The translations under genes were made by a program, and so were the position numbers. From a virus (lineage: Duplodnaviria; Caudoviricetes), in IMG/VR virus record IMGVR_UViG_3300037722_000953, positions 1-63,923 of that record: DNA of 63,923 bases. One strand, 5' to 3'. The notes beneath the pieces were generated by a model. The model did no database searches. It was not told where the DNA came from and saw only the letters and a program-made list of their open reading frames with translations. The first letter of the stretch is position 1, and every line of letters begins with the position of its first letter. Positions 6,219-40,196 of this stretch are shown piece after piece.

Positions 6219-6224
6219 GATGAG

Positions 6225-7727: not shown

Positions 7728-7836
7728 CTTATCCTCTACCTGTGGCGACGCACCAAAGAGCGTAAGCGGTTGCGGCCACCGGTGTCTTTTGGCAACCGTA
7801 AACAGGATTTTTGGGCGATGGAAGGGAAGGTTAGTG

Positions 7837-7995
7837 ATGGGTAGGAATTGGCAGCCGAAGTATAAATGCTACTGTGAGGCATGCGGGTGGCGCGGCGTGC
7901 GGACCGATAGGACGATGCGCAGGCGGTGTCCACGATGCAGTCACTATCCGGTGAAGCCACTGCCGAAAAGGGAGGCCGATGAACACCGCACCTGA
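7837..7995 (+). CDS. Small zinc-ribbon protein
   Basis: CEAC...CPRC. Confidence 0.5.
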   Translation: MGRNWQPKYKCYCEACGWRGVRTDRTMRRRCPRCSHYPVKPLPKREADEHRT

Positions 7996-8630
7996 CGCGC
8001 CAACCAGACCAGTACTGTACTATCACGGTGGCAAGTTCCGGTTGGCAAAGTGGATCATTAGCCACTTCCCACAGCACCGAGTTTACGTCGAGCCGTACAG
8101 CGGCGCGGCGGACGATTATGAGGTCGTTTATGGGGTATAGCTCTAATATGTCACCGGATTGGCGGACCGGCTTTAGGGACTACACGGGACCAAACCGAGC
8201 GTCAATCCCTGCCCACGACTGGGCCAGCTACCCAAATCACGTTTTAGCGTTCACCGACCGCCTGCGCGGCGTCGTCATCGAAAACAGACCCGCCCGGGAG
8301 GCGATCGCCCAGCAGGACAGCCCGGAGACGTTGTTTTATGCCGATCCGCCGTACCCCAAATCGACCCGCTCAAAATCCAGCCACTACAGTTGCGATATGA
8401 CCGATAACGAGCACCGCGAATTGGCCGAACAGTTGCGCGCCGTGGCCGGAATGGTGGTTGTCAGCGGCTATCCGTGTGATTTGTACGACATCGAGCTATA
8501 CCCGGATTGGCAACGGGTTCAGCGGGCCGCACGGGGTGATGGCGCGGTTGAGCGGATAGAGGTGTTGTGACTGTCGCCGCACGCCTGGCAGGCGCTGGAA
8601 GCGGGGCGGTTGCAGCCGAAACTTTTCTAG
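7979..8630 (+). pseudogene. Dam-like (D12-class) adenine MTase pseudogene
   Basis: 7979-8140 encodes YHGGKFRLAKWIISHFPQHRVYVEPYSG; another frame encodes RRTIMRSFMG...LFYADPPY; middle of protein missing; in-frame TGA in EVL*LSP. Confidence 0.85.
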
Positions 8631-8646
8631 CTAAAGCGATTTTACT

Positions 8647-9372
8647 ATGAGCCTAAAAACCCGCATCCGAGTTGAGCGCGCGCCAATCGACTGGGCGCAG
8701 TGGATAGCCACAAAATACCATTATCTACATCGGCCTGTTCACCCGCGCGCGCATCCGTTTGCGTACCGGGTTTGGTTCGATGGCTCACCTATCCGGCCTG
8801 ACGGCATGCCGTGTGGCATGCTAATGTTTGCTACAATCCACTACACGCGGCAAAAAGGGCTATTCGGCTACGATGAGATCAAGTTTACCAACTGTACCCG
8901 GCAGTTGAGCGGGCTAGCCGACCCCAACTCTGCGGCTGAAATCGCCAACCAGTTGGCGATGACACTAACTGATAACTGGACTGCCCGGCATCTGCCCGGC
9001 CTGGACAAATGGCAGGTGCTGGTACTATCTCGGATGTGGCTACATGACGACCTGCCGCGCAACTCCGCGACAGTCGTGATGGCTAAAATATGGCGGCGGA
9101 TTCAGCGTGACTGGTTGGAGCACCATCCGCCGGTTGATAGTGGTAGACCATACCATATCCGGCTTATCGTCTCCTGGGCTGACCTGGATCAGGGCCACCA
9201 GGGTACGGTCTACAAGGCAGCCAACTTTACGGAGGTCAAGCGGACGGTGAGTCAGAGGCGGCACGGCAAGAGTAATACGCGCGGTTCGGGTGGATTCAAC
9301 CTTATCCAATATGCGTACTGGTTGAGAGAGCCGCGGTGGAGGTTTGAGCAACTGCGGCTTTTTGAGACTTGA
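8647..9372 (+). CDS. Mom-like adenine-modification enzyme (GNAT-fold)
   Basis: YHYLHR, LSRMWLHDDLPRNSAT, IVSWAD-GHQGTVYKAANF. Confidence 0.8.
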   Translation: MSLKTRIRVERAPIDWAQWIATKYHYLHRPVHPRAHPFAYRVWFDGSPIRPDGMPCGMLMFATIHYTRQKGLFGYDEIKFTNCTRQLSGLADPNSAAEIANQLAMTLTDNWTARHLPGLDKWQVLVLSRMWLHDDLPRNSATVVMAKIWRRIQRDWLEHHPPVDSGRPYHIRLIVSWADLDQGHQGTVYKAANFTEVKRTVSQRRHGKSNTRGSGGFNLIQYAYWLREPRWRFEQLRLFET

Positions 9373-9397
9373 CAGCCGGGGCGATTGGTGGTAAGAT
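9369..9397 (+). promoter_or_regulatory. Internal promoter overlapping the mom-like stop codon
   Basis: TTGACA-17-TAAGAT with extended -10 TG. Confidence 0.7.
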
Positions 9398-9450
9398 GAG
9401 GGGATCCGCGAGAGTGGCGTCTCGGGGATAACCGAATAATAAGGAAAGTA

Positions 9451-9568
9451 GACTGTGGGGACAGTTGCAAAGCCTTGAGTTTTTGTACAGGGCGGGTATG
9501 GCGTACCCTAGCCAATAGGGACCCCACAGCCGCCAACCGCCCGGTACAAGAATTTAAGGCTTTTTTAT
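9451..9568 (+). ncRNA. C4/CI-like structured leader RNA with upstream complementary target and U-tract
   Basis: 20-bp stem 9469-9488/9544-9563; internal CCCCACAG (9522-9529) complementary to CTGTGGGG (9453-9460). Confidence 0.55.
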
Positions 9569-9590
9569 TCCCCCAGAAAGGTGACAACGT

Positions 9591-10874
9591 GTGGATTCTC
9601 ACCCAATAGCCAACATATTTCCACTTATCGAAGGTGAGGAGTTTGAGCGGCTCAAAACCGACGTATCGGCAAACGGCCTGATCGAATCGATCTGGCTTCA
9701 CCCAGATGGCAGTATCCTCGATGGCCGGAATCGTTGGCGCGCCTGTGAAGCGACGAATACGAACGCACACTTCCAGACCTACGACGGTAACCTCTCCAGC
9801 GCCGCCCTGATTGCCTTCATTGTTTCGCTCAACAAAGAGCGCCGGCACTTGACCAGCAGCCAACTCGCGGCGTGCGTGGTCAAGACCGGGGACCTGTTGG
9901 AACAGTTGGAGAGTGAGGCAAGGGGGAGGCAGGCGGTTGGACATTTCAATGCGCCCCAATATGCTGATAATCCAGTTGTGGAAATGTTTCCACAACTGGA
10001 ACAAGGCAAGTCCCGCGACCAGGCCGCCGCGCTGTTTGGGACAAACGGGCGGTACGTTCAGGACCTGAAGAGTATCGGTGAACGAGATCAGGGATTGCTC
10101 GATGATGTCTTTCAGGGCACTTTCTCAGTACCGGATGCCAAAATTCTGGCGAAATTGCCCGTTGGGAAAAGGGAGCGCGTTAAAAAAAAGGTTGTCGGAG
10201 ACGGCAAGAAATTAAAGGCGGCCATTCATGATGTTGAGCAAGAGACCAGGCTTGAGACTATCAAGCCGGTTAATGCCGACTGGCTGATAGTTGGTGATCT
10301 TCGCCAGGTTGGCGGCCAGATACCGGGCGATTCGATTGATCTGATATTTACTGACCCCCCTTACGACAAGTCCGCCGTAAAACTCTACAGCGACCTGGCT
10401 CAACTTGGAAAACGAGTCCTGAAGCCCGGTGGTATCCTCATGGCCTACAGCGGCCAAATGCACCTACCGGAAATAATGCCGCTAATGAGCGAGCACCTTG
10501 AGTATATGTGGCTATGCGGAATAGGCCATTCCGATGGCGCTACCTGGTTCAAGAAGTGGAACCTGGATAACCAATGGAAGCCAATTCTGATGTACGGTAA
10601 GCCACCGATAGCGCCATACTGGAATAAATTCGATGATTTCGTTTCCGGGGGGCGCGAAAAGGACAACCATAAATGGCAGCAGGCGCTGGCCGAATCGGCT
10701 CACTATATCAAGGCCCTATGTCCAGGCGGCGGCGCTGTACTCGACCCGTTCCTGGGGAGCGGCACAACATTGGTTGCGGCCAAACAGTTAGGCTGTCAGT
10801 ATTTCGGGATCGAGAAAGACGACCTGACAGCCCGGCAAGCAGAGGAAAGGATAGTGAATAGTGTCACAACGTGA
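9591..10874 (+). CDS. ParB-N domain fused to N4/N6 DNA methyltransferase (beta class)
   Basis: ILDGRNRWRAC and SLNKERRHLT (ParB/Srx); FTDPPY precedes LDPFLGSGTT. Confidence 0.9.
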   Translation: MDSHPIANIFPLIEGEEFERLKTDVSANGLIESIWLHPDGSILDGRNRWRACEATNTNAHFQTYDGNLSSAALIAFIVSLNKERRHLTSSQLAACVVKTGDLLEQLESEARGRQAVGHFNAPQYADNPVVEMFPQLEQGKSRDQAAALFGTNGRYVQDLKSIGERDQGLLDDVFQGTFSVPDAKILAKLPVGKRERVKKKVVGDGKKLKAAIHDVEQETRLETIKPVNADWLIVGDLRQVGGQIPGDSIDLIFTDPPYDKSAVKLYSDLAQLGKRVLKPGGILMAYSGQMHLPEIMPLMSEHLEYMWLCGIGHSDGATWFKKWNLDNQWKPILMYGKPPIAPYWNKFDDFVSGGREKDNHKWQQALAESAHYIKALCPGGGAVLDPFLGSGTTLVAAKQLGCQYFGIEKDDLTARQAEERIVNSVTT

Positions 10875-20389: not shown

Positions 20390-21196
20390 TCAAACACCAA
20401 ACGCCCCCCGTGTCCGCTGAAAAAGCGAGCCTACAGTGGCATCTGGCAAGGCGTTGGCACATAGGAAGCAGTGTGAGGCGCGACCGGTCAGTAGGCTCAT
20501 GCCAGCGTTGAACGCTCCAACCTGAAGCGCGGACGTTCCACTGTGTATGGACGCTGGAATAGAGGTCGTATTTGTTGTTTTTACTCCGTCGAGAAAAATA
20601 GCTAGTTCGCTCGATGGGGTGAAGCGACCCACCACAAAGTGAAACGCGGCGGCGGAAACAGACGCTGCCCCCGAACTTGCGCTTGTAATGGCGCTCCCGT
20701 CGACAGAAACGAACACTGCCGCGCTGCCATCGCCCTGGATATCCACCAGGTAAGACCGCTGGTTGCCCGCCCCGTTCCACTTGCTAATTAACCCCTGCGC
20801 GGCCCCCGCCGCCACAGCCCAAAAATACCCCCCCATCGTCAACCCACGTACCCCGCTGGCGTAAATTGTCTCAGTCCCTGAAATATCAAGGCCAGCCTCA
20901 TCGGCCCGGCTCAGAAAATCCCCCGTACCGTCGAGATCGATATATGGCACAAGGTTGTTATAAATGTTATACGTCGGATTGCCGTTATAGGTCAGGGTCC
21001 GGCCCTGCCCGCTCAGGTCGTAAGCATTGCCCGTACTGCCCTGGACGCTCGACATCGGCCAGAAACCGACCAGGCCGGGCAGGTCCAGAAATGGGCTAAT
21101 CAGGTCTGAGCTTTTCTCCGGCTTGACCAGGTTGTTAACCTGAGTTTGTAAATCCTTTACTTGCCGGGTTAGATCAATCATCGCCTGGTCAATCAT
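20390..21196 (-). CDS. LamG/ConA-like tail-tip (receptor-binding) protein
   Basis: GLVGFWPM, FHFVVGRF...IFLDG, LQVGA; last gene of the tail operon. Confidence 0.75.
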   Translation of the reverse strand: MIDQAMIDLTRQVKDLQTQVNNLVKPEKSSDLISPFLDLPGLVGFWPMSSVQGSTGNAYDLSGQGRTLTYNGNPTYNIYNNLVPYIDLDGTGDFLSRADEAGLDISGTETIYASGVRGLTMGGYFWAVAAGAAQGLISKWNGAGNQRSYLVDIQGDGSAAVFVSVDGSAITSASSGAASVSAAAFHFVVGRFTPSSELAIFLDGVKTTNTTSIPASIHSGTSALQVGAFNAGMSLLTGRASHCFLCANALPDATVGSLFQRTRGAFGV

Positions 21197-22323
21197 AATG
21201 CCGCTTCAAAATCTAACCGGGTATTGACCGTCTCCAGCCCGGTTTCGTCAACCGATAGCGCGACCGCCCGAATGATGCTATCAAATTGAATGTTGGCATA
21301 TTTAGCCCGCACTTTGTCACCAAAGTTCCAATGGATACCAAATCGCGTACCCTTGGTGTCTACCGGCTGGCCGGTAAAGTGAATACGGGGCCTGCCTTCG
21401 CTCAAATGCCGGCGGCCAGTTTCCCGGACGCCATTGGCCGTCGTCTGATCCCTGGCGTCTACAAAGCCCTCGCAGCGCGCCCACTGCGAGACGCCGTACC
21501 GGTCGGCATCGTAGACCTGTTGAATGTTTCTACTGCTGCCCTCCCCCTGGCCGGCGGCGTAGACGTAGTTCTCCTCATTGCTGTGATCGTATTCCAACGA
21601 AGGGTTTTTGAGGTTACCGGTCTCTTGAGAGAAGGCGACCTGGGCCGAAACATCCTGGCCCGGCTGGTTGATGGTAGTTTGGAATTGAAAACTAATTGAA
21701 TTGGAACTAATCACATTCGGGACTATATCAAAAAATACCTCATTACCCGCTGCCCTGGCGGCTTTGGCGATGTCATTAAATATGCCACTTTCGCCGGTAG
21801 CCAACAGCTTACCAAACTCAAGATTTCTTACCAGGATCGGCCCCAGACTGGTATCAGCTTGAACCGAGAGATCGCCCCAGACCCGTGTGCCGGCGTCCGG
21901 CGTGGGTGCCACGCTATCCGAGGTGGCTTCCGACAATATCTCTTTCATCATATTATCGGCATAGTCGGCCTTAGTAGCCTGAGATGAGCCTGAATAGGCG
22001 ATGGCATGGCGACGCCTGAGTAAATCCTTCATATCCGGGCCGGCAAGGGTAACAACTTCGTCACTCTCATTATGCTGAAATATCCAGCGCCTGAGAAGAT
22101 AGGTATTCCATAGCGACAGGACGCCACCGGTGGGCTGTCGCCAGATTTGCACCATTCGATCCGGTCCGATGAGATCGCGGCTGAATGAAAGAGGCATGGT
22201 CATAGTAAAATTGGCGATTTGATTGGCCGTTTTACCGGCCTGGAGATTAGTAAGGTTATCAAGTGAGGCCAACCTTACGCCAAAGCCGTCAGTGAGCCAG
22301 ATTTCATAATTAGCGGTCATCAA
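21193..22323 (-). CDS. Siphovirus minor tail protein (ReqiPepy6 Gp37-like)
   Basis: NYVYAAGQGEG, EGFVDAR, FGIHWNFGDKV. Confidence 0.8.
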   Translation of the reverse strand: MMTANYEIWLTDGFGVRLASLDNLTNLQAGKTANQIANFTMTMPLSFSRDLIGPDRMVQIWRQPTGGVLSLWNTYLLRRWIFQHNESDEVVTLAGPDMKDLLRRRHAIAYSGSSQATKADYADNMMKEILSEATSDSVAPTPDAGTRVWGDLSVQADTSLGPILVRNLEFGKLLATGESGIFNDIAKAARAAGNEVFFDIVPNVISSNSISFQFQTTINQPGQDVSAQVAFSQETGNLKNPSLEYDHSNEENYVYAAGQGEGSSRNIQQVYDADRYGVSQWARCEGFVDARDQTTANGVRETGRRHLSEGRPRIHFTGQPVDTKGTRFGIHWNFGDKVRAKYANIQFDSIIRAVALSVDETGLETVNTRLDFEAAL

Positions 22324-24914
22324 TCATAGCCATCATAGGCGTCTTGCCACAACAACCGGGCTGTAACAGCAGCCGCATAGATGCCCGATCCCGTATCGAC
22401 GTAACAGGTGATGTCATTACTACCAGGCAATAATGCCCAAGTCCCCAAGTCCGAAGCAGGCAAAACAGCGCCTGGTTTTGGTCTGGTGGATGGAAGAGAG
22501 ACAACACTCTGACTCGTTGGTGTTAAATCAATCACCAGGGTTTCACCATCTTTTAGGCTATAATTGATGCTAATTTCCTTGCCCGTCGTTTCGTTTCTGA
22601 CCTTTGTTATCGTAGTCGTACTCCCCCCCGTTCTGGTAAATATAATCGTCGGACGCGCTGCTACAGTGCCGGAATTATTAACAGTGACCAAACCACCATA
22701 ATACGACGTAACACCGGCCAAGCTCGATGCCCCCACGAACACAGAATACCTTTGTTTAATCAATGGATCGTGGTATTTACTGGCATAAATGGCAAACAAA
22801 CTAGGCGTGCCACCTAATTCAAGATCGATATGTGTCCAGGCCGAGCCATTCCATCGGCTAATGCGATTAGTTAAACTCAACCCCCCGGCCTCGGTAAAAA
22901 TACCGGAAGCCCAAAGACTCTTATCAGGCGCTATCGATACATCAAAAACAATATTATCCATACCAGAACTTAACGGAACAAAAGACACTCCGTTCCAGGC
23001 AACGATAAAATTTACCAAATTACCGTCACCATCCACCGTGAATGATCCGCCGATATAGGCTATGCCGGTATCTGGATCGACCTGTATCACGAACGCGCCA
23101 CCCGCCCCCAGGCCGTTACCCAATGCACTCCAGGCCGAATTTACGCTATCCCAGGCGGCTATATAATTAGCGGCGCTACCCCCGGCAGTGGTAAATTGTC
23201 CGCCTGCCAAAATAGTTGTGCCGTCGAGCAGAACGCCCAGAGATAAACCCTGGTTATTCAGACCACTACCCAAAGCGGACCAGGTGCCGTTGAATATGTC
23301 CCAGGATGCGATACGGTTAGCCGCCCCGCCACTGCCCAATGTTGTAAAATCACCGACTACATATAAAATATCGTTATCGTCGACAACAACGTCTCTGGCA
23401 ATACCTCCCAGGCCACTACCCAGGGCGGCCCACGTTTCCGATACCGTGTCCCAGGCGGCGATACGGTTGGCCCCCGACCCACCTGCGGTAGTAAAACTGC
23501 CGACAACATATAAAACGCCGTTGTCAGAAAGCCACAGGGCAATGCCAGAAGCATTTAGACCGGTGCCCAATGCGCTATAGACTTGATCGACCTTATGCCA
23601 CCTTACAATATAATCTGCGTTGGCTATATTATCAAAGTTGGTAAAATTGCCCGTGATGTATACATATGTTTCGTCTTCGGCAAAGTCATTTATATTTGTG
23701 TATGTGCCCGAAGCACTGGGCGGCCCTAAATTAGACCATTGTCCGGTTGACCTCAATCGACCGGCGACATATCTAAATGTTGCGCTGTCCTGAGTGTCTA
23801 GCAGCGCCGCACTCTCCCCAATCTCATACCAAAACGGATTAGGCGCTTGTAACTGGATGGATGCTTTCTCGGTATAAAGTTCTGCTTTGCCCCACTTATC
23901 ATCGTCAATGATTTCCCAGCCACCATAAAAAGCCGACTTTTTACCCTCCAGCCCCCCGGCATAGTAAGCCGAAATTTCCTTCTGGACTTGCGCGCCGCTA
24001 AACCTGATCTTTGTCGCCTGTCCGCCCAGTGTCTGAAATTCCAATCGCAGAGCCTGCCTTTTGGCGTGTAGCTCTTCTTCACTTTCGGCAATAAATTTAC
24101 CAATCAAAGTAAATTCACGTGGCAATATCTTCTCGGAATTCAGTTCGCCGCCCGGCAGGATTGCGTACTGATCGATGCCCAGCCGCAGCGGGCTGGCTCC
24201 GGCATCGATTATCTCCTCGATTCTAAAGCCGTATTCTTCGTAGAAATCGACCGGCTCACCACCCGCTTTCGAGCCGCCGCTTCGTCGACTGACCGCGGCA
24301 TGCTCTGGGCCCAACCACTCACAGCCCTCCTGACTACCGTCGATATAAGTCGTTAGTTGCCCCGGTTCGACCTGCAAGCCGTCGATGTAGACATCCATAT
24401 TGGTACTGGCCAGGATATTTAGATTAGTCTGGCCGTTCGTCTCCCCGGCTGAAAACTCGGCGCTGTACAAGTTCCACTGCTTATCTATTTTCCCGACGAG
24501 TTGAAGTGTGTGCTGACCGGTTCCTACCTGGCCTACCAGTTCACCCTTGGCCAGGTTCCTGACACGGACCGACACGGTATGGTTCGAGTTCGTCAGCGTA
24601 CCAAGCGTCAGGCTAATGCCGTCATTAGTTGCGCCGGCCTGAACACGGTATGAGTACGGGCCATATTTTTGATACGTGGTTGAGCGGGTAACGGTCGCCC
24701 CGGCGACGGCGCTGAAGTTGCCGGTTGTCTCGGCACTCGGATTGAGCACGTAATTTATTCGCGCCTCATTCAGGTATTTAACTATCTGCCACGAGTTATT
24801 ATCACAATTATTCATGCACATTATCACCGGTAAATAGATAAACGTCTGAGCATGTACCGAGGTTTGAAGTACTATCAACAAAAGCAGAGTAATAATCCAT
24901 TTCGCTAATCTCAC
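22320..24914 (-). CDS. Distal-tail-like protein with CBM-like and beta-propeller insertions and an N-terminal signal-peptide-like leader
   Basis: Directly after the TMP; NYVLNPSAE; repeats V.G.FTT.GG..AN.IA.WD...W.ALG.GL; C-terminal LLPGSNDI. Confidence 0.75.
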   Translation of the reverse strand: MRLAKWIITLLLLIVLQTSVHAQTFIYLPVIMCMNNCDNNSWQIVKYLNEARINYVLNPSAETTGNFSAVAGATVTRSTTYQKYGPYSYRVQAGATNDGISLTLGTLTNSNHTVSVRVRNLAKGELVGQVGTGQHTLQLVGKIDKQWNLYSAEFSAGETNGQTNLNILASTNMDVYIDGLQVEPGQLTTYIDGSQEGCEWLGPEHAAVSRRSGGSKAGGEPVDFYEEYGFRIEEIIDAGASPLRLGIDQYAILPGGELNSEKILPREFTLIGKFIAESEEELHAKRQALRLEFQTLGGQATKIRFSGAQVQKEISAYYAGGLEGKKSAFYGGWEIIDDDKWGKAELYTEKASIQLQAPNPFWYEIGESAALLDTQDSATFRYVAGRLRSTGQWSNLGPPSASGTYTNINDFAEDETYVYITGNFTNFDNIANADYIVRWHKVDQVYSALGTGLNASGIALWLSDNGVLYVVGSFTTAGGSGANRIAAWDTVSETWAALGSGLGGIARDVVVDDNDILYVVGDFTTLGSGGAANRIASWDIFNGTWSALGSGLNNQGLSLGVLLDGTTILAGGQFTTAGGSAANYIAAWDSVNSAWSALGNGLGAGGAFVIQVDPDTGIAYIGGSFTVDGDGNLVNFIVAWNGVSFVPLSSGMDNIVFDVSIAPDKSLWASGIFTEAGGLSLTNRISRWNGSAWTHIDLELGGTPSLFAIYASKYHDPLIKQRYSVFVGASSLAGVTSYYGGLVTVNNSGTVAARPTIIFTRTGGSTTTITKVRNETTGKEISINYSLKDGETLVIDLTPTSQSVVSLPSTRPKPGAVLPASDLGTWALLPGSNDITCYVDTGSGIYAAAVTARLLWQDAYDGYD

Positions 24915-29615: not shown

Positions 29616-31133
29616 TTAACTTGCCTTTATAAACACTGGGTAGCCGCCGTTGTTCTCACCGGCTGCGATTGCGGTATTGACATCGCAACAAGCCAACGCA
29701 TTGAGGTCAATGGCCGCCGCAATCACCTGGGTATAGCCACTTACAATCTCAACATCGGCCGAGCCTGCGCCGCCGGACAGGTCTCTAAGAATGCGCCCCC
29801 GCGGGCCGGCGTCATTGTGTAAAATCCATAACACATCGCTACCACACGGGCCGCAGAAGCTCAGATCATCGATGGTGCCTACCCCATCCCCGTCAAACGA
29901 GATAGCCGCGAACGTGGCTCCCTCATCCTTTGAGCGGTAGATTTTACCATCGTTACCACCGACGTAAACTTCTTTTTGTCTGCCATCCGTTGGCGGGACA
30001 ACCACGACTAGCAGGTTGGCGGACGTAGTAGAGGTTTCGGTCAGGTCGCTCCAACTCTCACCGCCATCGTTTGACTTGAGGATAACGCCATTATTGCCGA
30101 CCGCATAGACCAGGTCTTTATCGACGGCATAAACGGCGTTGATATCTTCGGCAGTCAGTTCACCGGCACCCAATACCCCATTCCAGGTGCCGCCATCGAC
30201 CGTCTTGTAAACCGCGCCACCGACACAGCCAACATATCCCTCGCGGGCGGTCCGCATGTAAAGCGCGTTATGGTTCGAGCTTGGCGCATCGGCCAATACT
30301 ACAAAGTTCCATTCATCGGGGTCGCCATCGTTGGTGTTGAATGCGATCCCGCTCGCGCCGTTGGAGTGGACAACCAATCGACTGCCAGCGCACTCGACGC
30401 CGTCCGCATTGTTGCCGCCAAAAGGCAGAATTGGATTGGTTGTCCAGGTGACGACATCCGTCGTAAGGTTTTTTACCGCCTTGATAAGATTGGGTGCGGC
30501 ATACGGCGCTTCGTCGGCGTCGGTCACGGCGTACCAGATCGAGCAGCCATCCGATCTATCACCGCAGTCACCCCCGCAGGACTGAGTATCGCAGAATTCG
30601 ATATCATTGACCGGCTGGTCGCCTACGGTTGCGGCGCTACTCGACAGCCGCGCCGGTGTAATCATTTTGACCCGGTACTCGTCGTCTGCCTGTACCGGCG
30701 CGGTAATGAGAATTTCGTCGTTTTCGCCGGGGTCGGTTATGACCAAATCGTCATAGCTGTATTCCTGCAGCTCGCTGTTGCAGTAAGTCAGCATCAGTGG
30801 ATTGTAATTGGATGGGTCTTCCCGCTCACCACAGTTGGCGAACCGGGCCCGGGTCCCAAACGGACATTTCAAATCTGCCAGCGCGTCCAGCTTGCCGAGC
30901 TTGGTCATCAGGTCGAACGACACCTGGTCTGCCGCTGTCCGTATTTTGCTTGATTTCTTGAATGCCCCCGCCCGCTTGGGGTCCTGGCAGTATCTGATTT
31001 CGGTACCGCCTAGCGGCACCGTGGGGCCGCTCATAGCCGCACACGAGCTAAGATATATCCAGTTATTACCCGGTCCGCCCGGCTGTACGTCCACCTGACC
31101 TTCGCCCTTCAGAGCAAGGATTTCATCAGCCAT
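29616..31133 (-). CDS. Major tail (tube) protein with C-terminal BNR/Ycf48-like propeller
   Basis: Position before chaperones; KTVDGGTW, KSNDGGESW, RSKDEGATF repeats. Confidence 0.7.
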   Translation of the reverse strand: MADEILALKGEGQVDVQPGGPGNNWIYLSSCAAMSGPTVPLGGTEIRYCQDPKRAGAFKKSSKIRTAADQVSFDLMTKLGKLDALADLKCPFGTRARFANCGEREDPSNYNPLMLTYCNSELQEYSYDDLVITDPGENDEILITAPVQADDEYRVKMITPARLSSSAATVGDQPVNDIEFCDTQSCGGDCGDRSDGCSIWYAVTDADEAPYAAPNLIKAVKNLTTDVVTWTTNPILPFGGNNADGVECAGSRLVVHSNGASGIAFNTNDGDPDEWNFVVLADAPSSNHNALYMRTAREGYVGCVGGAVYKTVDGGTWNGVLGAGELTAEDINAVYAVDKDLVYAVGNNGVILKSNDGGESWSDLTETSTTSANLLVVVVPPTDGRQKEVYVGGNDGKIYRSKDEGATFAAISFDGDGVGTIDDLSFCGPCGSDVLWILHNDAGPRGRILRDLSGGAGSADVEIVSGYTQVIAAAIDLNALACCDVNTAIAAGENNGGYPVFIKAS

Positions 31134-32953: not shown

Positions 32954-34306
32954 TTAGCTTAGGAAGTTTTTAGCTTTCCCAATGATTTCCTGACTTCTCT
33001 TTTCGCCGATACCTTTGTACGGTATCAACTCCATCGGATCAACCTCGGCCAATTTCTCAATGGTCCAGCTTTCGGCCTCTAGAATCTCTTTGATCCCATC
33101 GGGTAGGTCAAGCGGCGTCAGATCATAGTGAACAACAACCTGCTTGGTCACTTCGACCGCTTGCACTTGTTGTTCACCAACACCCAACTCCTCACTAGCT
33201 ATTCTATCATAGCGTTCTATTTCCGTCAATGCTGGCTTGGGCGCTACGTATGGCGCCGGCTCTTCTTTCCCTGGTCTGATTTCTGTGTAGCCGTCCGGTG
33301 GAGCAACGCCTACGGCAAAATCCTGACCACGGCCAAAGCCCCTGAACCGCGCCTCTTCCGCCTTATGGACTTCAAACTTATGCCCGGTTCCCAGAATTTG
33401 GTAGGTGTGATGAAACCCCTGAACGGTACTTCTTACTGATAGAGCGCCAGACACAGCGCCTTTGTACTCGACCCATACCTTTTGGTCACTCGGCAGTTGA
33501 TCCAGGGTCGTTATTTTTAGATTTTGTTGTTGCTGGCCGTTGTTCTGTTGGCCCGTGTAGCTCGCTTTACCTGATCCGCAACACCCCATAGGGTACCTCC
33601 CCTCGTAAACGTCTTTATGTATTTCCATTATTCTATTACGCATCTCTGAAATGCGTCCATTCTTGTGTGTTAAGGCATATGATCTCGACCAATCGTGTTT
33701 TCGATACATCAGAGTGATGGTATTGATTTTCTTGCCACAGAAACCAGCCTTGCCTGCGCCTATCCAGTATTCGACATCCTCTAAACCAGCCTCTAATTCA
33801 TTCTTCCAACCGCCTGTCTTGATGTGACAATCGTAGCTGTGCAAAGCGGTTACGGGGATGATACCACCCAGGTCCAGTATGCCATTAAAGGTATAATCGG
33901 GTAGGCTGAAGAACTTGCCTTTTTCGCCATTATCGACCCGTTGCAAATTGCCATAAATGACTTTTGTCTTATCCTCTAGCCATGCGCTATACATTGCCTC
34001 AAGGGTGTAATCCTCGGCCAGCATGTCGTCAGCATCTAAGGCCAGAATAGCTTCACCCCGGCTGATTGCTGCGCCGGTATTGCGCGCAAGTGCTGGCCCG
34101 GATTGCCGGGTGGTTCTGATCTTCCGCAGCTTCTCATTGCCATCCCTCAGAGTGACGATTGAAATAGGCGAACTGTCATCAACTAGAACAATTTCCCAAT
34201 CGATGAACGTCTGGCTGAACACACTCTCAGTGCATTCATTCAGCCATTCGGCTTTTTGAACGCTGTCGATATAGGCTGGTATAATAATCGAGATAGCTGG
34301 CTTCAC
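32954..34306 (-). CDS. GT2 glycosyltransferase with C-terminal MGCCG domain and HhH
   Basis: ISIIIPAY, VDDSS, ARNTG, LDADD, EDVEYW; C-terminal KGIGEKR. Confidence 0.85.
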   Translation of the reverse strand: MKPAISIIIPAYIDSVQKAEWLNECTESVFSQTFIDWEIVLVDDSSPISIVTLRDGNEKLRKIRTTRQSGPALARNTGAAISRGEAILALDADDMLAEDYTLEAMYSAWLEDKTKVIYGNLQRVDNGEKGKFFSLPDYTFNGILDLGGIIPVTALHSYDCHIKTGGWKNELEAGLEDVEYWIGAGKAGFCGKKINTITLMYRKHDWSRSYALTHKNGRISEMRNRIMEIHKDVYEGRYPMGCCGSGKASYTGQQNNGQQQQNLKITTLDQLPSDQKVWVEYKGAVSGALSVRSTVQGFHHTYQILGTGHKFEVHKAEEARFRGFGRGQDFAVGVAPPDGYTEIRPGKEEPAPYVAPKPALTEIERYDRIASEELGVGEQQVQAVEVTKQVVVHYDLTPLDLPDGIKEILEAESWTIEKLAEVDPMELIPYKGIGEKRSQEIIGKAKNFLS

Positions 34307-34797
34307 AATAGATTGGCTCCTCTCAGGCAGTTCTCTACATACTCATTAGCTATATGATCCGAACCAATGTCCTTATAAAATATCCAGGTATAATCACTGG
34401 CTGTTGCATCGAGCGCAACATTATGCTGCCCGGAGTGCATTGTGTAACAAAAACAAATGTTATGCCTGTCGGGATACTGTATCTGTTGAAAGTGTACCAT
34501 TGAACCGAGCAATAGTCCAGTCAATCCACACTCTTCTTTAGCCTTACGGACGGCGCATTCCTCTAATGTTTCGCCGTAATACAGGCGGCCGCCGGGCAAA
34601 AACCATTTGTCTTTTAGTGGCTCTTCAGCGCGTTTGGCAAAAAGAACGTGTTGGTTATGGATACAAATAATATCGACACAGACGATGGGTACCAGAGATT
34701 GGATTTTTTGATAGGTTCTTTTAGGGATAATCACGGTCTCTAATCTCTCCTTGTCATCGCCAATATTCCCCAGCCTCAACCCTCTCATTTTTACCAA
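34303..34797 (-). CDS. Nudix hydrolase, GDP-mannose mannosyl hydrolase-like (true start probably further downstream)
   Basis: PIVCVDII...WFLPGGRLYYGETLEECAVRKAKEECGL. Confidence 0.8.
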   Translation of the reverse strand: MVKMRGLRLGNIGDDKERLETVIIPKRTYQKIQSLVPIVCVDIICIHNQHVLFAKRAEEPLKDKWFLPGGRLYYGETLEECAVRKAKEECGLTGLLLGSMVHFQQIQYPDRHNICFCYTMHSGQHNVALDATASDYTWIFYKDIGSDHIANEYVENCLRGANLL

Positions 34798-36553
34798 GTA
34801 CCTCTAACAACTCCTGCACTCTGATATCGAAAGAGTGACGCTCCAATGCCAACTTCACCCCGGCCTTGGCTATTGCCTGACGCTCGGCTTCGTTCCTCAA
34901 ATAGTATCTGATCTTGTCTTCCAATTCCTTGAAGTTCGACCAGACGAGGCACGTTTCACCATCGGTCAAGCCAAGTTCCTCCATCCCTCTAAACCATTGG
35001 TGAGCCAGAGCGCTTCCACCGGCTGCCAGGGCCTGAAACACTCGATTGGAGACAAACCCGCTGTCAGGCCATTGGCTATCGCCAATGCTTATTTTCGCGC
35101 CGCGATAAATCTTGCAGCCTTCGATGAAATTATAGAGTGTGTTGCCCTTGGCCCAGCCTGACGGCCAGCCCGCGCCATACAATCCAAAGGAGAACCCGTT
35201 AAGGCTCTTTAATCGTTTGACGAATGCTTGCCTATCAGGGCTATAGCCATTGGCTAAGAATACGACATCATCAAACGTATCAGGTTCATGGCCAACCCCG
35301 TCAGGCTCATAACCGATCTGCCAATAGGCCGAGTTGATACCTAGTCTCAAGTATTTTTCGTTGACATCACGATTAACCGTAGTCATCAGATCAAATGACC
35401 TGGCTAATTTTATACCATCATCGCTTAGTAGATTGTCGGGCCAATAGTCACCATTCCAGTTGACGAATCTGGCCTTGGGTGCAATCATCCTGAGACTGGC
35501 TATGTCGTTTTGGTCGATATTAGCGCCATTGTGCAGCTGAGTTAGTACAATCGTCGGATCGATTTTGCTTATTAGCCTCTGGAGATTGGCAAGCATTAGT
35601 GCCTTACCGCCTGACCGGAACTCGGTCACGTAGTCGAACTCAGCTACCAATGCCGCTTTGGCTAGGGCCTCTCTTAGCCCCCTTTTTTGCTGTTTCTGAA
35701 TTTCAAAGCCCGGCTCATAAATCGGCAAATAAACAACTCTATCCCTTGGCGTCAGTGGATTGGTGTAAATCGGCACATCCCGCGCTGTCGGTCCGGTCAA
35801 TCCACCGTATTCAGGCTTGCGCCATTTTCGGCCCCAGGCGTAGCTATCGCGGTGTTGCCCGTAGACCGCGCGTGGGTCCTTTGCTCCATCTACATTGTTG
35901 ATGCGCCGTAGCTCGTCTGCTGCTTCGGCGTCGTGTATTCTCGTACCCGGTACAGGTTCGACCCGATAGCCGACCTCGTAAACATTGCAACTAATCTCGT
36001 TGTCACCGCCATAGGTATGCAGGTAATCACCCCACCAACCAACTTCATCGCCTAGCCATTTAGGCACTATACAGACCTGGCCATAATAGCCCGTTTGTGG
36101 CCGGTGTTCATTGTTGCCTACAGGTACCAATGTCGCCATTCGCTCTACATGCCAATCCAGTCCGTTTCGATCCTGGTAGAAACAGCCTATCCCGCATAGT
36201 GGATTATTCTGCATATACAGCCACCCTAGATAGATTGTGTCTCTCAGAAACTCGATATCATCGTTAGCCAGGATGACATACTGTCCATTGGCAGCATAAG
36301 CGCCATCATTGAATGCCTTGACCGCGCCTCTAAGGGCGCCGTGTTCGATCAGGCGGCAATCGGGTTGCTGCCCGATCCAATCAAGTGTGCCATCGGTCGA
36401 ACCGCCATCGACTAAAACAAATTCGTGGGATAGGCCGTGAAATGAGCCAAGCGATTGGCGGCCGGATTCAACCATCTTGGTGAGGTATGACAATCGGTTG
36501 TAGGTGCCAGAGACAATGCTTATATCCATGTTAACACAGACTTGACACATCAA
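34754..36553 (-). CDS. Bifunctional glycosyltransferase (GT2 + CgeB-like GT-B)
   Basis: VDGGSTDGT, ANDDI; C-terminal SNRVFQALAAG...EAERQAIAKAG...HSFDIRV. Confidence 0.85.
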   Translation of the reverse strand: MMCQVCVNMDISIVSGTYNRLSYLTKMVESGRQSLGSFHGLSHEFVLVDGGSTDGTLDWIGQQPDCRLIEHGALRGAVKAFNDGAYAANGQYVILANDDIEFLRDTIYLGWLYMQNNPLCGIGCFYQDRNGLDWHVERMATLVPVGNNEHRPQTGYYGQVCIVPKWLGDEVGWWGDYLHTYGGDNEISCNVYEVGYRVEPVPGTRIHDAEAADELRRINNVDGAKDPRAVYGQHRDSYAWGRKWRKPEYGGLTGPTARDVPIYTNPLTPRDRVVYLPIYEPGFEIQKQQKRGLREALAKAALVAEFDYVTEFRSGGKALMLANLQRLISKIDPTIVLTQLHNGANIDQNDIASLRMIAPKARFVNWNGDYWPDNLLSDDGIKLARSFDLMTTVNRDVNEKYLRLGINSAYWQIGYEPDGVGHEPDTFDDVVFLANGYSPDRQAFVKRLKSLNGFSFGLYGAGWPSGWAKGNTLYNFIEGCKIYRGAKISIGDSQWPDSGFVSNRVFQALAAGGSALAHQWFRGMEELGLTDGETCLVWSNFKELEDKIRYYLRNEAERQAIAKAGVKLALERHSFDIRVQELLEVLGKNERVEAGEYWR

Positions 36554-36574
36554 GTTCCTCCGACAGGGTGTTCG

Positions 36575-37129
36575 TTATCCAAACCATTTCACCCCAAAGC
36601 CACCCTCAGCCGTTGCGTGTAATTCATCCAATCTCAACTTAGGCTCTTCTAAATCATCCCAGAACGTGCCCATTTCTTCGCGCAGCAAGTCATCAAGACA
36701 AACAATCGCGCCATCACTCAAGTAAGGTAGCCAGGCAAAGTATTCTCGCCACGTCCTGTCCTCAGTGTGTGTTGTATCCACAAACAAAAGATCGACCGGC
36801 CCATGCTCGTCATGAACAGCCTTAGCCAATTCAACGCTATCGCCAAGCCAGAATTCAAAATTAGGACAGCGGATACCTATGTAGTCGATATTATCTGGCA
36901 CTTCCTTAACGATGTCGATACCCACCACTTTTGAACTCTGGCAACCCAGGCACATATGCAGCGATCCGCCGCCACCGGCCACGCCCAGTTCGACAGCCAA
37001 CCTGGGTTTTAGATCCTGCGCTAACACTTTCAAAAAACGGTAATAAAGCGATGGCGGGAAATTTGGGTTGGGATATGGCGACATTCTCAGGGCCTTGTCA
37101 CGGTATTCCCTGATCAAATCCTGATTCAT
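36575..37129 (-). CDS. Class I SAM O-methyltransferase (Methyltransf_24-like)
   Basis: VELGV, DLLFVDTTH, CLDD. Confidence 0.8.
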   Translation of the reverse strand: MNQDLIREYRDKALRMSPYPNPNFPPSLYYRFLKVLAQDLKPRLAVELGVAGGGGSLHMCLGCQSSKVVGIDIVKEVPDNIDYIGIRCPNFEFWLGDSVELAKAVHDEHGPVDLLFVDTTHTEDRTWREYFAWLPYLSDGAIVCLDDLLREEMGTFWDDLEEPKLRLDELHATAEGGFGVKWFG

Positions 37130-37746
37130 ATCAATACGACCCCCATCGCATTGCCATTGTGAAGGCTGTTTTCATACAGCCTTTTATCACCCGGCAACTC
37201 CTCAAAATACTGGACCATCCCTTTGCCAGGCGGATCGACCAGTGGATCGTAAAACGCTTCTGTAATATCATCGCATACCCAGACAGCGCCATCGGCCAGC
37301 AGTCCTGAGTACAACCCCCATTCTGTTTTCGATGGCTCATAGTGATGTGAGCTATCTTGAAACACCAAGCCTAATTTGCCGAATCTATCTACTAAATCTG
37401 ATACCTGATCGAATACCTTCGTCGAATCACCCCGGATAAAGTGGTAATTTACCCTGAATAAATCAACCTGCTCCAGATCGATGCCTATAACCTGTATACC
37501 CGCTTCACACATATAGCCAGAACCATAACCCTCCTGCACACCTATCTCCAAAGCGAGTTGCGGTTTATAGGTTCTGGCCAAGTGATAAAGAAATCTATAA
37601 TACCTGATCCTGTCTGGGTTTTTAGGGATTTGATCCAGGCATAGATGAGGCTTGATAGGCGCTTGACTTAGCTCAATCAGAGCCTCGATCTCATCCCATC
37701 CACTCATACAATAAAACTCCCCACCCACAACTTGGGTGCAAATCAT
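37126..37746 (-). CDS. Class I SAM O-methyltransferase (Methyltransf_24-like)
   Basis: LEIGV, FQDSSHHY, VCDD. Confidence 0.8.
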   Translation of the reverse strand: MICTQVVGGEFYCMSGWDEIEALIELSQAPIKPHLCLDQIPKNPDRIRYYRFLYHLARTYKPQLALEIGVQEGYGSGYMCEAGIQVIGIDLEQVDLFRVNYHFIRGDSTKVFDQVSDLVDRFGKLGLVFQDSSHHYEPSKTEWGLYSGLLADGAVWVCDDITEAFYDPLVDPPGKGMVQYFEELPGDKRLYENSLHNGNAMGVVLI

Positions 37747-38248
37747 CGTCCCTTACTTTCGAGTAAGGTAGGCTCTGGAAATATCTCCCTACCTCATTTT
37801 CTTTGGCATTCAAATCGTCAAAAATGACAACAGCACCTTTTTTCAGAAACGGCCTATAGGCTTCGAATTCTTCGCGCGCTTGCGCCTCCGAGTGCTCGGT
37901 ATCGATATGCAGCAGAGCTATCGTATCAGGCTCCAAGAAATCAGGGGGCGGCAATGAAGACTGCTCCAAGAACTGGATATTGTCAAGCTTGTTCAATACC
38001 GTATCCAGCTCAGGCTTCTTCTGGCTGTCGATGCCAAGGACTGGATTGCCGGACAGCGCCAGGCCGGTTAGGCCCCGACCGGTCTCGACGCCTAACTCAA
38101 CCAGCAAGCCGTCTAATTGTTTCGAGACAAGGTACATAAACAGGTAATATGGCGAGTAATATTCACCGCAAACTCTGAGCAGTATGTCCGGTATCGAAGT
38201 ATTTCTTTTGGCCTTAATTACCAATCTACTCAGCGTTACCAGGTTCAT
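37691..38248 (-). CDS. Class I SAM O-methyltransferase (Methyltransf_24-like)
   Basis: VELGV, LLHIDTEH, IFDD. Confidence 0.8.
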   Translation of the reverse strand: MNLVTLSRLVIKAKRNTSIPDILLRVCGEYYSPYYLFMYLVSKQLDGLLVELGVETGRGLTGLALSGNPVLGIDSQKKPELDTVLNKLDNIQFLEQSSLPPPDFLEPDTIALLHIDTEHSEAQAREEFEAYRPFLKKGAVVIFDDLNAKENEVGRYFQSLPYSKVRDDDLHPSCGWGVLLYEWMG

Positions 38249-38864
38249 ATTTCAAAAATCCCATCGGGTAGCCGATGTGTATCCGGTTTTCCAGATGCTT
38301 GTCGCCTTCCATCTCATTCCAGAAGTCCAGCATCCCGGCTATCGTGGGGCCGTAACCGCCAACAATATCATCGCAAATGACCAGGGCACTCTTGCTCAGC
38401 AATGGCCGGTACAAATCCCAATCCTTCTTGGCGTATTCGTACATATGCCAGCTATCGATAAACAGGATGTCGATAGGCTGATTGAACGCCTTGACCGCGC
38501 CGATAACGTCCCAAGTCCAGCCTTGGAGGTAGGTCAGATTTGGATACAGCGCCAATGCCTCGATGCACTTGGACTTATTTAGATCGTCGCCAGGGTCACC
38601 GTGATGATCGATTGTCACCACCTTGGCTTTGTCGTATCCTGCGGCGAAACAACAGGCAGCGGTACACTGCCACGCGCCCAATTCGACAACCAGGTCAGGC
38701 TTGAGTTCTTTGGCCAGGTGGTGAAATGTCTTGTAGTAGGGGTGTGCCGTGCCGTGATCGCGTTCATAGCCGGCTATCCGTTCATCGATGAACGGGTCCC
38801 CGGTGCGCCAATCACCTAGAGAATTGTCGATGATCTTTTGGACTTGTGCCAGGGTGAATTTCAT
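38226..38864 (-). CDS. Class I SAM O-methyltransferase (Methyltransf_24-like)
   Basis: VELGA, DILFIDSWHMY, ICDD. Confidence 0.8.
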   Translation of the reverse strand: MKFTLAQVQKIIDNSLGDWRTGDPFIDERIAGYERDHGTAHPYYKTFHHLAKELKPDLVVELGAWQCTAACCFAAGYDKAKVVTIDHHGDPGDDLNKSKCIEALALYPNLTYLQGWTWDVIGAVKAFNQPIDILFIDSWHMYEYAKKDWDLYRPLLSKSALVICDDIVGGYGPTIAGMLDFWNEMEGDKHLENRIHIGYPMGFLKYEPGNAE

Positions 38865-39292
38865 CTTATCCCAAAAGTCTCCAATAGCTCATTGCAATAA
38901 TCAATGCTTTTTGTTGTCTCGTTTCTCCAAGAAATCAAACTGAAACGCACCTCTTTTAGACCATCTTTGACCAAGCGTCTAAATTTTCTTGTCATCTCAT
39001 CGTCCAAATGGTCGATGATGAACCTATAATTTGCCATATTGAACACGGGCAAACTCATCCCGTTTGCCTCTTTTTCTTCAAGATCGACAGTCCACCTGAA
39101 ATATAAGTCAAGTTTAGGTTCATATGCCCTGAATGATACAGAGCTTATCATACCAAGTCGGTGCATCCCTGCGTTGCAATCAATGACTAAATCCCAAGGC
39201 AGCTCCTCAAACCATTCCAGCCAGATATCATTTATACCCAATGCCTTCAAGTGTTCTGCCTTTTTAGGTATGTCCTTATACTTTAGTTTCAT
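38861..39292 (-). CDS. Hypothetical protein (AT-rich)
   Basis: ATGA-coupled. Confidence 0.55.
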   Translation of the reverse strand: MKLKYKDIPKKAEHLKALGINDIWLEWFEELPWDLVIDCNAGMHRLGMISSVSFRAYEPKLDLYFRWTVDLEEKEANGMSLPVFNMANYRFIIDHLDDEMTRKFRRLVKDGLKEVRFSLISWRNETTKSIDYCNELLETFGIR

Positions 39293-39708
39293 TCTATTTC
39301 AATTTTATGATTTTTTGCTACTACGGGCCACCTATCACCATAAATATCTTTGCCGAACTTGCGTGGATTGTCCTTTGGGTAAAGCAAAATCGCGCCAAAT
39401 GGACCATCCGCACAGTAGCCATTGTAAAGTCTGGCTTCCCATCCCCACCGTTGGTATTGTTTACATATTCTTTCTGCAATATGTGCGGGTATTTTTAGAT
39501 CGCTAATCATAAAGATCAAGGACCCCACAGGCCGGTCACTACTAGTGAATGATGTACTATAATGATACGACATCCGAGATACCTTGGCATTAAACAGTTC
39601 CAGGGATGTCCTATACAGCTGATTATCAAAAGATGCTTGGTAGTCAAACGGTATATTATCAGGTGTTATCATTTTGCACTCATAACTATAGCGGTGAAGA
39701 CCGAACAC
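39289..39708 (-). CDS. Hypothetical protein (AT-rich)
   Basis: Operon-coupled. Confidence 0.5.
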   Translation of the reverse strand: MFGLHRYSYECKMITPDNIPFDYQASFDNQLYRTSLELFNAKVSRMSYHYSTSFTSSDRPVGSLIFMISDLKIPAHIAERICKQYQRWGWEARLYNGYCADGPFGAILLYPKDNPRKFGKDIYGDRWPVVAKNHKIEIE

Positions 39709-40164: not shown

Positions 40165-40196
40165 TCCTCAGTATAGCGAAATGGTATTCGGGTGTA

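Follow-up and report, generated by a model that had tools for sequence, protein, structure and literature searches.

The stretch of DNA analysed here, referred to as the window, is the full length of IMG/VR virus record IMGVR_UViG_3300037722_000953 (Duplodnaviria; Caudoviricetes), a single contig of 63,923 bases with a GC content of 53%. It represents the genome of a tailed phage, in which both the large and the small terminase subunit are present, and our subject is the leader at the N-terminus of one of its tail proteins, the distal tail protein Dit (P0001). The order of the genes matches that around the Dit gene of siphoviruses: the tape-measure gene is followed by the Dit gene (22320-24914) and then by a Sipho_Gp37-like gene (21193..22323), the product of which is Sipho_Gp37/Prophage_tail-like (Table 1). 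The first 45 codons of the Dit gene are best explained, judging from the sequence, as encoding three elements: residues 1-22 would form a cleavable Sec signal peptide of the signal peptidase I (SPase I) type, residues 23-33 a copy of the Chloroflexota YLP-box that is slightly degenerate, and the remaining residues a flexible linker. The presence of a conserved and, by prediction, cleavable export signal on the hub of a tail is unexpected for virion parts that are assembled in the cytoplasm. We consider the chance that an exported, envelope-docked form of Dit is made to be about even.

The leader of the Dit protein

The leader is almost certainly translated and maintained by selection. As the original prediction had claimed, the GTG start codon overlaps the stop codon of the tape-measure gene, which can be read directly from the sequence. 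The anti-Shine-Dalgarno duplex that can form ahead of this GTG has an energy of -6.6 kcal/mol, a value reached by 8.3% of random positions (n=2000; median -2.9), the median for 30 window genes at the starts of their longest open reading frames (ORFs) being -5.55. Moreover, the leader starts between -4 and +54 nt from the tape-measure stop in 16/16 related loci that have a tape-measure ORF; two further related loci have no upstream ORF in the available stretch and fall outside this count. The ratio of non-synonymous to synonymous change (pN/pS) in the leader codons was 0.08, 0.30, 0.23, 0.45 and 0.42 in five close pairs of relatives. In 5/5 pairs, therefore, purifying selection acts on the leader as a translated peptide.

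A search for homologues in a collection of 5.8 billion proteins returned 276 relatives at E<=1e-3, the best 120 of which (40-51% identity) were used. Gene callers began 37/120 of these database entries downstream of the leader, which would favour a wrong start in the window as well, with translation from M32 or M34 and the leader never made. The original prediction had itself named a start at the internal Met (MNNCDNN), together with homologues that lack the leader, as the outcome that would speak against it. However, M32 and M34 are without a Shine-Dalgarno (SD) sequence (-3.0, which is the background level) and were rejected as starts, whereas the GTG has both an SD and the overlap with the stop codon. 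In addition, the leader peptide is conserved in close homologues with a pN/pS below 1, and the database entries that are called leaderless have, where checked, the leader ORF upstream; in L014, L015 and L016, for instance, it is present in the DNA ahead of the called Met. The absence of a leader from the 37 database homologues would thus partly reflect the choice of start by the gene caller. A wrong start is close to excluded, and we give it hardly any probability.

Read from the GTG, the N-terminus translates as V(M)RLAKWIITLLLLIVLQTSVHA-QTFIYLPVIMCMNN, exactly as given in the original prediction, and the first 33 codons specify a signal peptide followed by Y-L-P-V-I. The n-region contains R2 and K5, the h-region extends from W6 to L16 and the c-region is QTSVHA, with V20-H-A22 at positions -3 to -1 and predicted cleavage at A22|Q23. 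Thus a basic n-region, an h-region of about 7-15 residues and small residues at -3 and -1, as required of a Sec SPase I signal peptide, are all found, and the marks of other signal classes (a twin-Arg, a lipobox L-x-x-C or G|F-x-x-x-E) were not found in the window leader. The assignment was made with descriptive sequence rules, together with matches of a leader profile to cellular signal peptides.

The homologues largely keep the leader, a point that the original prediction had put up for checking. A hydrophobic N-terminal leader is present in 83/120 of them, and the charge of the n-region is +2 in 77/83. A site of the form [aliphatic/small]-x-[A/S] followed by Q/D/G/E lies 4-11 residues ahead of the box in 82/83 leaders; 80 of the 83 have Ala at -1 and 69 have Gln at +1. 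The uncharged run measures 10-20 residues in the 83 leaders (mode 15-17), and is therefore of signal-peptide length and short for a membrane anchor. A profile of 40 positions built from 16 leaders (A2) was used for comparison with cellular proteins. Its signal-peptide half, in the control search of Planctomycetota, matched the N-termini of cellular ORFs in 11/11 such matches examined, all of which read M-K/R..., a hydrophobic run and A-x-A|Q-E; a twelfth locus examined (L094) matched the box half, in a short frame. We are fairly confident that the leader works as a Sec/SPase I signal as predicted. Among the 94 ORFs of at least 50 aa in the window, only Dit combines a hydrophobic N-terminus with a box.

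The second element of the leader corresponds to a motif that the original prediction had given as xYLP(L/V)(I/V). Such a motif does exist, as the curated NCBIfam models NF050076 (sort_motif_YLP, cut-off 15 bits) and NF053834 (ultrashort_CTERM, cut-off 10 bits), and is enriched in Chloroflexota. The core, aromatic-L-P-hydrophobic-hydrophobic, is present in the window, and in the leader alignment P29 is invariant and L28 at least 90% conserved, whereas the usual Lys or Arg two positions past the hydrophobic pair is absent (C33) and no NCBIfam match is obtained. A box of the type aromatic-[LFMI]-P-h-h, in which h stands for a hydrophobic residue, is found in 82/83 leader-bearing homologues, the exception having S-L-P-I-I. 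The combination of leader and box is not due to chance, because 83/120 homologues carry the leader and 82/83 of these have both the box and an A-x-A-type site. On full-length proteins NF050076 matched only 2/59, owing to filters and protein length; the box scans were made on N-terminal peptides of 22-52 residues. Out of 30 phage leader peptides, 7 are at or above a curated cut-off (NF050076: L004 15.9, L008 16.0, L015 17.2 and L152 16.8 bits; NF053834: L003 13.4, L147 13.0 and L149 11.9 bits), 3 match below it (L009, L010, L012) and 20 have no YLP match. We take the motif to be the curated YLP-box at the level of the family, with a somewhat degenerate copy in the window, and the phage box is probably equivalent to the box of the host.

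Other boxes were found neither in the 94 ORFs of the window nor in the phage genes of 43 related loci, save for FLPILRG in tape-measure proteins. A conserved FLP[IL]LR[GQ] lies within the tape-measure ORFs of L004, L006, L010, L011, L017 and L021; it is part of a conserved internal segment, resembles the box and is read as unrelated.

The remainder of the protein has the features of a Dit into which putative glycan-binding modules have been built. The match of P0001 to phrog_33 'distal tail protein Dit' has an E of 2e-14. Residues ~42-215 gave an ESM Atlas feature score of 0.91 and a template-modelling score (TM) of 0.79 to viral CBM_4_9 clusters, which is to be read as a lead only, and are modelled with a local confidence (pLDDT) above 90; NF048003 was found in 26/59 aligned homologues, not in P0001 itself. 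The ring region is weakly supported, by TIGR01633 in 5/59 homologues (best E 0.041) and by a weak match to Gp15 in the PDB (9m8o_G, E 0.05). The search of the PDB with the whole model by means of Foldseek was dominated by propellers, and the inserted propeller is Rax2/Kelch-like, Kelch chains in the PDB being matched both by sequence and by fold. In BFVD, models of a phage 'distal tail protein' and of a phage 'minor tail protein' were among the matches, the 'distal tail protein' ones at low TM. Pfam and NCBIfam scans detected no enzymatic domain in Dit, and tblastn of P0001 against 50,697 GenBank phage records gave no match.

The AlphaFold2 model, made with a 59-row alignment, has a mean pLDDT of 88.7 and a predicted TM (pTM) of 0.83. 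Residues 2-17 form a helix off the fold (pLDDT about 60-69), residues 18-34 have a pLDDT below 50 and the first strand begins at residue 42. Since the stretch 18-34 is disordered and the fold starts only at ~42, the box would be a free tag on a tether, outside any domain.

Table 1. Positions of the leader, the Dit domains and the flanking tail genes in the window
Feature	Position	Strand	Evidence or remark
Dit gene (P0001), 864 aa	22320..24914	-	Pfam/PHROG matches, fold
Shine-Dalgarno-like AAGGA	24924-24920	-	5 nt upstream of GTG
GTG start codon of Dit gene	24914-24912	-	overlaps tape-measure TGA 24913-24911 as GTGA
Residues 1-22, Sec/SPase-I-type signal peptide (predicted)	24849..24914	-	sequence rules; detached AlphaFold2 helix 2-17
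Residues 23-33 (QTFIYLPVIMC), YLP-box region	24816..24848	-	core Y27-L28-P29-V30-I31; Cys at box position 7
Internal ATGs M32, M34	24813..24821	-	SD duplex -3.0, background; alternative starts of the original prediction
Residues ~42-215, CBM_4_9-like beta-sandwich (begins W42-Q-I-V ... N58-P-S-A-E)	24270..24791	-	structure match; NF048003 in homologues
Residues ~220-400, Dit N-terminal (ring) region, weakly supported	23715..24257	-	TIGR01633, 9m8o_G, phrog_106
Residues ~400-700, Kelch/WD40-like beta-propeller inserted in Dit	22815..23714	-	PF12768 E 4.1e-11; PDB
Residues 749-841, Dit C-terminal domain	22392..22670	-	PF22768 SPP1_Dit 30.0 bits (cut-off 25); phrog_33
Tape-measure gene, 1223 aa	24911..28582	-	PF10145 E 3.8e-50; phrog_1533 E 1.3e-87
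Tal-like tail gene, 376 aa	21193..22323	-	PF14594 Sipho_Gp37 E 1.4e-22; phrog_538; start overlaps Dit stop

Several relatives have leaders that vary on this design. L167 has a lipobox-like LVAC, L173 a signal peptide without box, L027 a signal peptide, a degenerate box and an extra domain of ~250 aa, and L032 and L035 are extended by a short hydrophobic stretch. A Cys-rich linker (C-x-G-[YF]-C ... P-C) surrounds the box in L014, L016, P0084, P0096-P0098 and P0116, and the window has C33 and C37; these residues might form disulfides outside the cell. Cysteine counts of the protein cores were tried as a sign of life outside the cytoplasm and were left unused: leader-bearing cores have 1-4 (one has 11) and leaderless cores 2-10, a comparison that is suggestive but confounded by relatedness.

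Distribution of the leader and of the YLP-box

A total of 104 loci was fetched, from which 70 distinct N-terminal regions, the window counted, remained after the removal of duplicates. These regions comprise 27 with a signal peptide and a box, 2 that are signal-peptide-like without a clear box (L032, L173), 37 scored as 'none' and 4 without an anchor. Three of the 37 are mis-scored, namely L013 (cut by the contig end, box shown), L157 (box after masked bases) and L027 (leader further upstream, beyond the extra domain), and one of the four regions without an anchor, L023, has a leader. The leaderless genes start with M-S-[DN]-W-K..., directly after the tape-measure stop and 17-18 residues ahead of the conserved N-P-S-A-E. 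Compared with these, the leader is a derived insert of ~40-50 codons that separates the tape-measure gene from the ancestral start of Dit.

A quick maximum-likelihood tree of 30 rows is in line with this. The 14 closest rows, the window among them, form one leader-bearing clade (support 99), and a clade of 22 rows (support 100) contains all leader-bearing rows together with 4 leaderless ones and 2 variants, all deeper rows being leaderless. The distribution of the leader label on the tree requires 3 changes, at least 2 of which are forced by well-supported branches. The leaderless relatives include the integrated Anaerolineales prophage L002. They also include L150, which was left out of the tree and encodes a Dit with an N-terminal sequence like that of the window sub-clade and with its Met directly after the tape-measure stop. 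The existence of such relatives implies that tails can apparently be built without the leader.

The original prediction had proposed, among other readings, a membrane-tethered tail assembly, in which an uncleaved leader would anchor the tail-initiation complex to the cytoplasmic membrane. The translational coupling of the start to the tape-measure gene and the hydrophobic nature of the N-terminal helix would be compatible with such an anchor, but the topology rules are not: given the positive n-region, the positive-inside rule places the body of the protein outside, as does the conserved cleavage site, and the hydrophobic stretch has the length of a signal peptide. Moreover, the leader was gained and lost among close relatives. 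We regard this proposal as highly unlikely.

Some genomes of the Chloroflexota are enriched for the YLP-box. With NF050076, 240 matches at E<=1 were obtained across 41 genomes of this phylum, 29 of which have a match and 20 a match over the cut-off (28 and 19 of 40 when G040, with 2 weak matches, is left out), and the matches are concentrated in few genomes (78, 35, 24, 20, 20, 18 and 8). The control for this enrichment is one phylum, the Planctomycetota, of which 41 genomes yielded 26 matches, with no more than 3 in any genome and 7/41 genomes over the cut-off, and many of the matched frames were tiny; a set of 14 named control genomes had matches in 6, and in 2 over the cut-off. When profile A2 was used on 61 genomes of either phylum, 28/52 matches in Chloroflexota and 3/42 in Planctomycetota spanned the box, the latter all in frames under 75 aa. 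Of the 28, one is located mid-ORF and seven are due to a conserved membrane motif of the NuoL/M type, which was encountered at 8 loci in all and was rejected as a false positive of the leader profile.

The position of the cellular boxes was inspected in a YLP-rich Anaerolineales metagenome-assembled genome (MAG), G001. Eight of the 14 matches inspected are boxes at the stop codon or at most 4 residues from it and 3 are between domains; of the remaining matches two run off contig ends and one is doubtful. The link of the motif to the Chloroflexota, as given in the original prediction, is borne out by the enrichment, whereas the cellular boxes are mostly C-terminal or between domains and not located after a signal peptide. 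A 21-codon open frame in the same genome (L053; G001:C10:45874-45909) ends in a perfect YLP-box and is maybe a frameshifted gene end or a mini-ORF.

The arrangement seen in the phage was found in 8 ORFs of 5/61 Chloroflexota genomes, which encode a signal peptide with an A-x-A-type site and then a box at a distance of 6-12 residues. A Pfam scan of seven of them gave two with DPBB (expansin or lytic-transglycosylase-like), three with CAP/SCP, one GH5 cellulase and one unmatched protein. Proteins of these kinds are typically extracellular, and the NF050076 cut-off was reached by 3/5 of the N-terminal peptides tested. Host cells thus employ leaders of the same design as the phage, in support of the capture of a host leader as put forward in the original prediction. 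The cellular and the phage box share the core Aromatic-L-P-h-h-x-K/R, preceded by P/x/K/V. They differ in that the latter resides at the N-terminus of a phage structural protein, whereas the cellular ones are mostly found at the extreme C-terminus or between domains.

A host from the Chloroflexota can be assumed with reasonable confidence. The leaderless relative L002 (37% identity, inside the 22-row clade) is encoded on a 139-kb contig of an Anaerolineales MAG that has a phage terminase at 18 kb and, further on, genes for cytochrome-c assembly, MoeA, Wzz/Wzy, BcsB and YLP-box exoproteins. Because this contig holds both phage and cellular genes, it represents a prophage in a chromosome. The YLP motif does point to the phylum named in the original prediction, being typical of some Chloroflexota, although the phylum itself is something we infer. 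Another leaderless relative, on a 36.9-kb contig, was binned to a Pirellulales MAG, which blurs this picture. The propeller was considered as a host marker and rejected: the full-length profile matched repeats in 65/401 Planctomycetota versus 34/401 Chloroflexota genomes, so that the repeats, being commoner in Planctomycetota, are uninformative on the host. A second ORF in the Anaerolineales MAG G001 (G001:C11:59792-60325; 1045 aa) matches only the N-terminal module of the Dit profile, which resembles a carbohydrate-binding module (CBM), with an E of 5.3e-27.

A possible exported form of Dit

Many of the leader-bearing relatives appear able to make two products from the Dit gene. An ATG or GTG is kept at the ancestral position in 18/29 genes with a signal-peptide-bearing extension, and in 14 of those 18 it is preceded by an SD duplex of <=-6.6 (for instance -11.0 in L020, -11.4 in L153, -11.2 in L168, -10.7 in L026, -10.3 in L173 and -9.9 in L014). 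The peptide around the ancestral start is variable, and the purine-rich SD is kept. The leaderless genes have the same SD rate at the same position (22/30), as compared to 8.3% at random positions, in counts that come from related genes and are not independent. The retention of an internal start with its SD implies that such genes yield both a long form, bearing the export leader, and a short form that equals the ancestral cytoplasmic Dit. An internal promoter was rejected as an additional signal, since only weak 9-of-12 consensus matches were found. The ancestral start codon is absent in 11 genes, namely those of the window, L004, L007-L012, L021, L152 and L154, and 9 of these 11 are in the tree, all within the window's sub-clade of 11 rows. 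Thus, the exported isoform that was suggested in the original prediction fits the relatives with a second in-frame start and its own SD, but the sub-clade of the window has lost the internal start.

These data may be explained by a leader of host type for export and docking, acquired by insertion in a single lineage of an uncultured family of siphoviruses. We infer the export, the cleavage, the docking and the biological role from the features of the leader. The ribosome would initiate at the GTG that is coupled to the tape-measure stop, and the leader would route all or part of the Dit pool through Sec. Signal peptidase would then cleave after VHA, bringing the YLP-box to ~4 residues from the new N-terminus, and docking in the cell envelope would be the task of the box, which presumably plays this part on host exoenzymes as well. 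Once there, the CBM-like and propeller modules may bind a surface glycan that is also recognised by the virion. The role that requires the fewest assumptions is masking of the receptor glycan, which would lead to superinfection exclusion or would prevent progeny from adhering to debris and to the neighbouring cells of a filament. We propose a role in receptor masking or exclusion tentatively, and would not expect it to hold on present odds. The virion Dit would, in many relatives, be made from the second internal start at the ancestral position.

Several points weigh against an exported and docked Dit. According to the accepted view, tailed phages produce and assemble the core parts of their virions inside the cytoplasm. 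The main difficulty lies with the sub-clade of the window. Tail assembly needs a cytoplasmic Dit, and only the long form is evident in the window; as the internal start is missing from the window and 10 sub-clade genes, a Dit that is exported only could not build tails there. One precursor would thus have to serve both fates in this sub-clade, in a way that the mechanism leaves unexplained. Moreover, the scan of the 94 window ORFs revealed no other tail protein with a signal peptide. With respect to the box, the 7/30 leader peptides that reach a cut-off include several mutually close relatives, the window's own peptide (24780-24914) has no NF050076 or NF053834 match at E up to 10, and its C33 takes the basic box position at which 47/83 homologues have Lys or Arg. 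The boxes of G001 are mostly C-terminal or between domains and none is N-terminal, an observation made in one genome. The term 'YLP-box' was not found in the literature searched, and the function of the box is putative. The SD comparison between leader-bearing and leaderless genes, finally, loses force by the relatedness of the genes. Considering the above, the window sub-clade would have either partial export or a role of the leader in the virion.

The loss of the internal start might also be taken to mean that the leader of the window's phage is a neutral remnant or one in decay, which had its use in ancestors that possessed two starts; its box would be eroding and its export weak or absent. 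The lack of a basic residue and of a hidden Markov model match for the box would be in line with such decay, as would the GTG with its moderate SD. However, the n-region, the h-region, the VHA site and the Y-L-P-V-I core are all intact, and sister lineages (L003, L004 and others) keep full boxes at cut-off that are under purifying selection. A mere remnant is accordingly very unlikely in our opinion.

A role in the virion would imply that the leader is kept and exposed on the Dit of the baseplate, where the box could plug the tail tip into an envelope component that receives YLP-boxes, or the helix could, upon infection, insert in the membrane of the host. The long form is the sole SD-led product in the window sub-clade, so virions must contain the product of this frame. 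In addition, the box is located on a disordered tether beside the peripheral CBM-like domain, and cellular boxes occur at N-termini, at C-termini and between domains, as would be the case for a binding epitope. Yet a leader that acts on the virion needs neither a basic n-region nor a -3/-1 site, and both are kept in 82/83 leaders; also, an exposed hydrophobic helix is unlikely on a soluble virion part. The leaderless L150, with its very similar N-terminal sequence, and the ability of 18/29 leader-bearing genes to make a leaderless Dit do not suit such a role either. We regard it as unlikely. Still somewhat less probable, in our view, is a baseplate that displays a host sorting tag, with at least six YLP-box tethers that would dock into a receptor or the sorting machinery of the host, such that adsorption proceeds by mimicry and the signal peptide serves to mature or hide the tag. 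If this were true, the Dit family would provide the first handle for finding the partner of the YLP-box.

An exported Dit would have parallels in known systems. Cor and Ltp are exported phage proteins that block receptor or entry. The Llp protein of T5 is summarised in the literature as a phage-encoded envelope protein that blocks the phage's own receptor or entry (PMC9586334; bioRxiv 10.64898/2026.03.26.714494). By analogy, Dit would share with these three proteins the logic that a signal-peptide-bearing phage protein in the envelope of the infected cell stops adsorption or entry. The proteins of the Llp type are small dedicated lipoproteins encoded by separate genes, whereas here it would be the tail hub itself, possibly via alternative starts.

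Dual starts are likewise known. The S107/S105 pair of phage Lambda results from a dual start that gives two products. In-frame internal starts that yield two endolysin products appear in the summaries of further reports (PMC9430671, PMC12203907, PMC4777826). The common element is the second in-frame start, present in 18/29 leader-bearing relatives and provided with a strong SD in 14; the difference is that the products of Dit would be separated by compartment, that the gene encodes a virion hub and that the window is without a second start. The endolysins fOg44 Lys44 and P1 Lyz carry a signal peptide or a signal-arrest-release domain. They share with Dit, as predicted here, that a late phage protein uses the Sec system of the host, but they are designed to attack the wall from the outside and do not belong to the virion, and Dit has no detected enzymatic domain.

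As a tail protein, Dit resembles the siphovirus Dits in its position between the tape measure and Tal, in the match to PF22768 above cut-off and to phrog_33, in its glycan-binding modules and in its fold matches. We presume it to be comparable to the 'evolved' Dits with carbohydrate-binding insertions, for which SPP1 gp19.1, TP901-1 Dit, T5 pb9 and the Dits of the Lactobacillus phages J-1/PL-1 may be named. To our knowledge, neither a cleavable signal peptide nor a sorting motif of the host has been described for any Dit. A Dit with a conserved export leader and a host sorting tag was found neither in the literature listings and abstract openings searched nor among the GenBank phages, and the matches listed for Chloroflexota phages, for Chloroflexi signal peptide/YLPL and for virion Sec export contained nothing relevant. 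Taken singly, none of the components is new: the Dit family, Sec signals and in-frame dual starts are known, and so is the YLP-box, if only as a database entry.

The relatives together constitute a natural series, from no leader, via a leader with a retained internal start, to a leader only, which suggests that a structural protein gained an extracellular job. The link between a phage and the phylum-typical YLP-box may furthermore serve as a sequence-based pointer to the host for uncultured Chloroflexota viruses, and Dit could serve as a small model protein in studies of YLP-box function.

Other genes of the window

The presumed portal, capsid and other head proteins (45111-51947, minus strand) have no Pfam or PHROG match at E<=1e-3, and the phage lineage is therefore poorly sampled. 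The position of the major tail protein is occupied by a 505-aa protein (29616-31133, minus strand) with BNR/Sortilin/PSII_BNR-type repeats.

A block of sugar-modification genes is located between the head and tail genes (32954-45872, minus strand), with an additional part at 52124-52627 (minus strand). It encodes at least six GT2/GT1-like glycosyltransferases and four Methyltransf_24/CmcI-like methyltransferases, as well as an RmlD-like reductase, a NUDIX protein, a DUF1360 membrane protein and an RmlC-like epimerase. The products could glycosylate virions or remodel the surface glycan of the host, the latter of which would touch on receptor masking.

Genes for DNA modification are dense at 5271-10874 (plus strand) and 55031-55534 (minus strand). 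The set consists of a PAPS-reductase-like protein (phrog_424), a C5 methylase, a D12-type fragment, a Mom-like protein and two N6/N4 methylases. The sole tRNA found in the window is a tRNA-Val (CAC) at 1137-1221 (minus strand).

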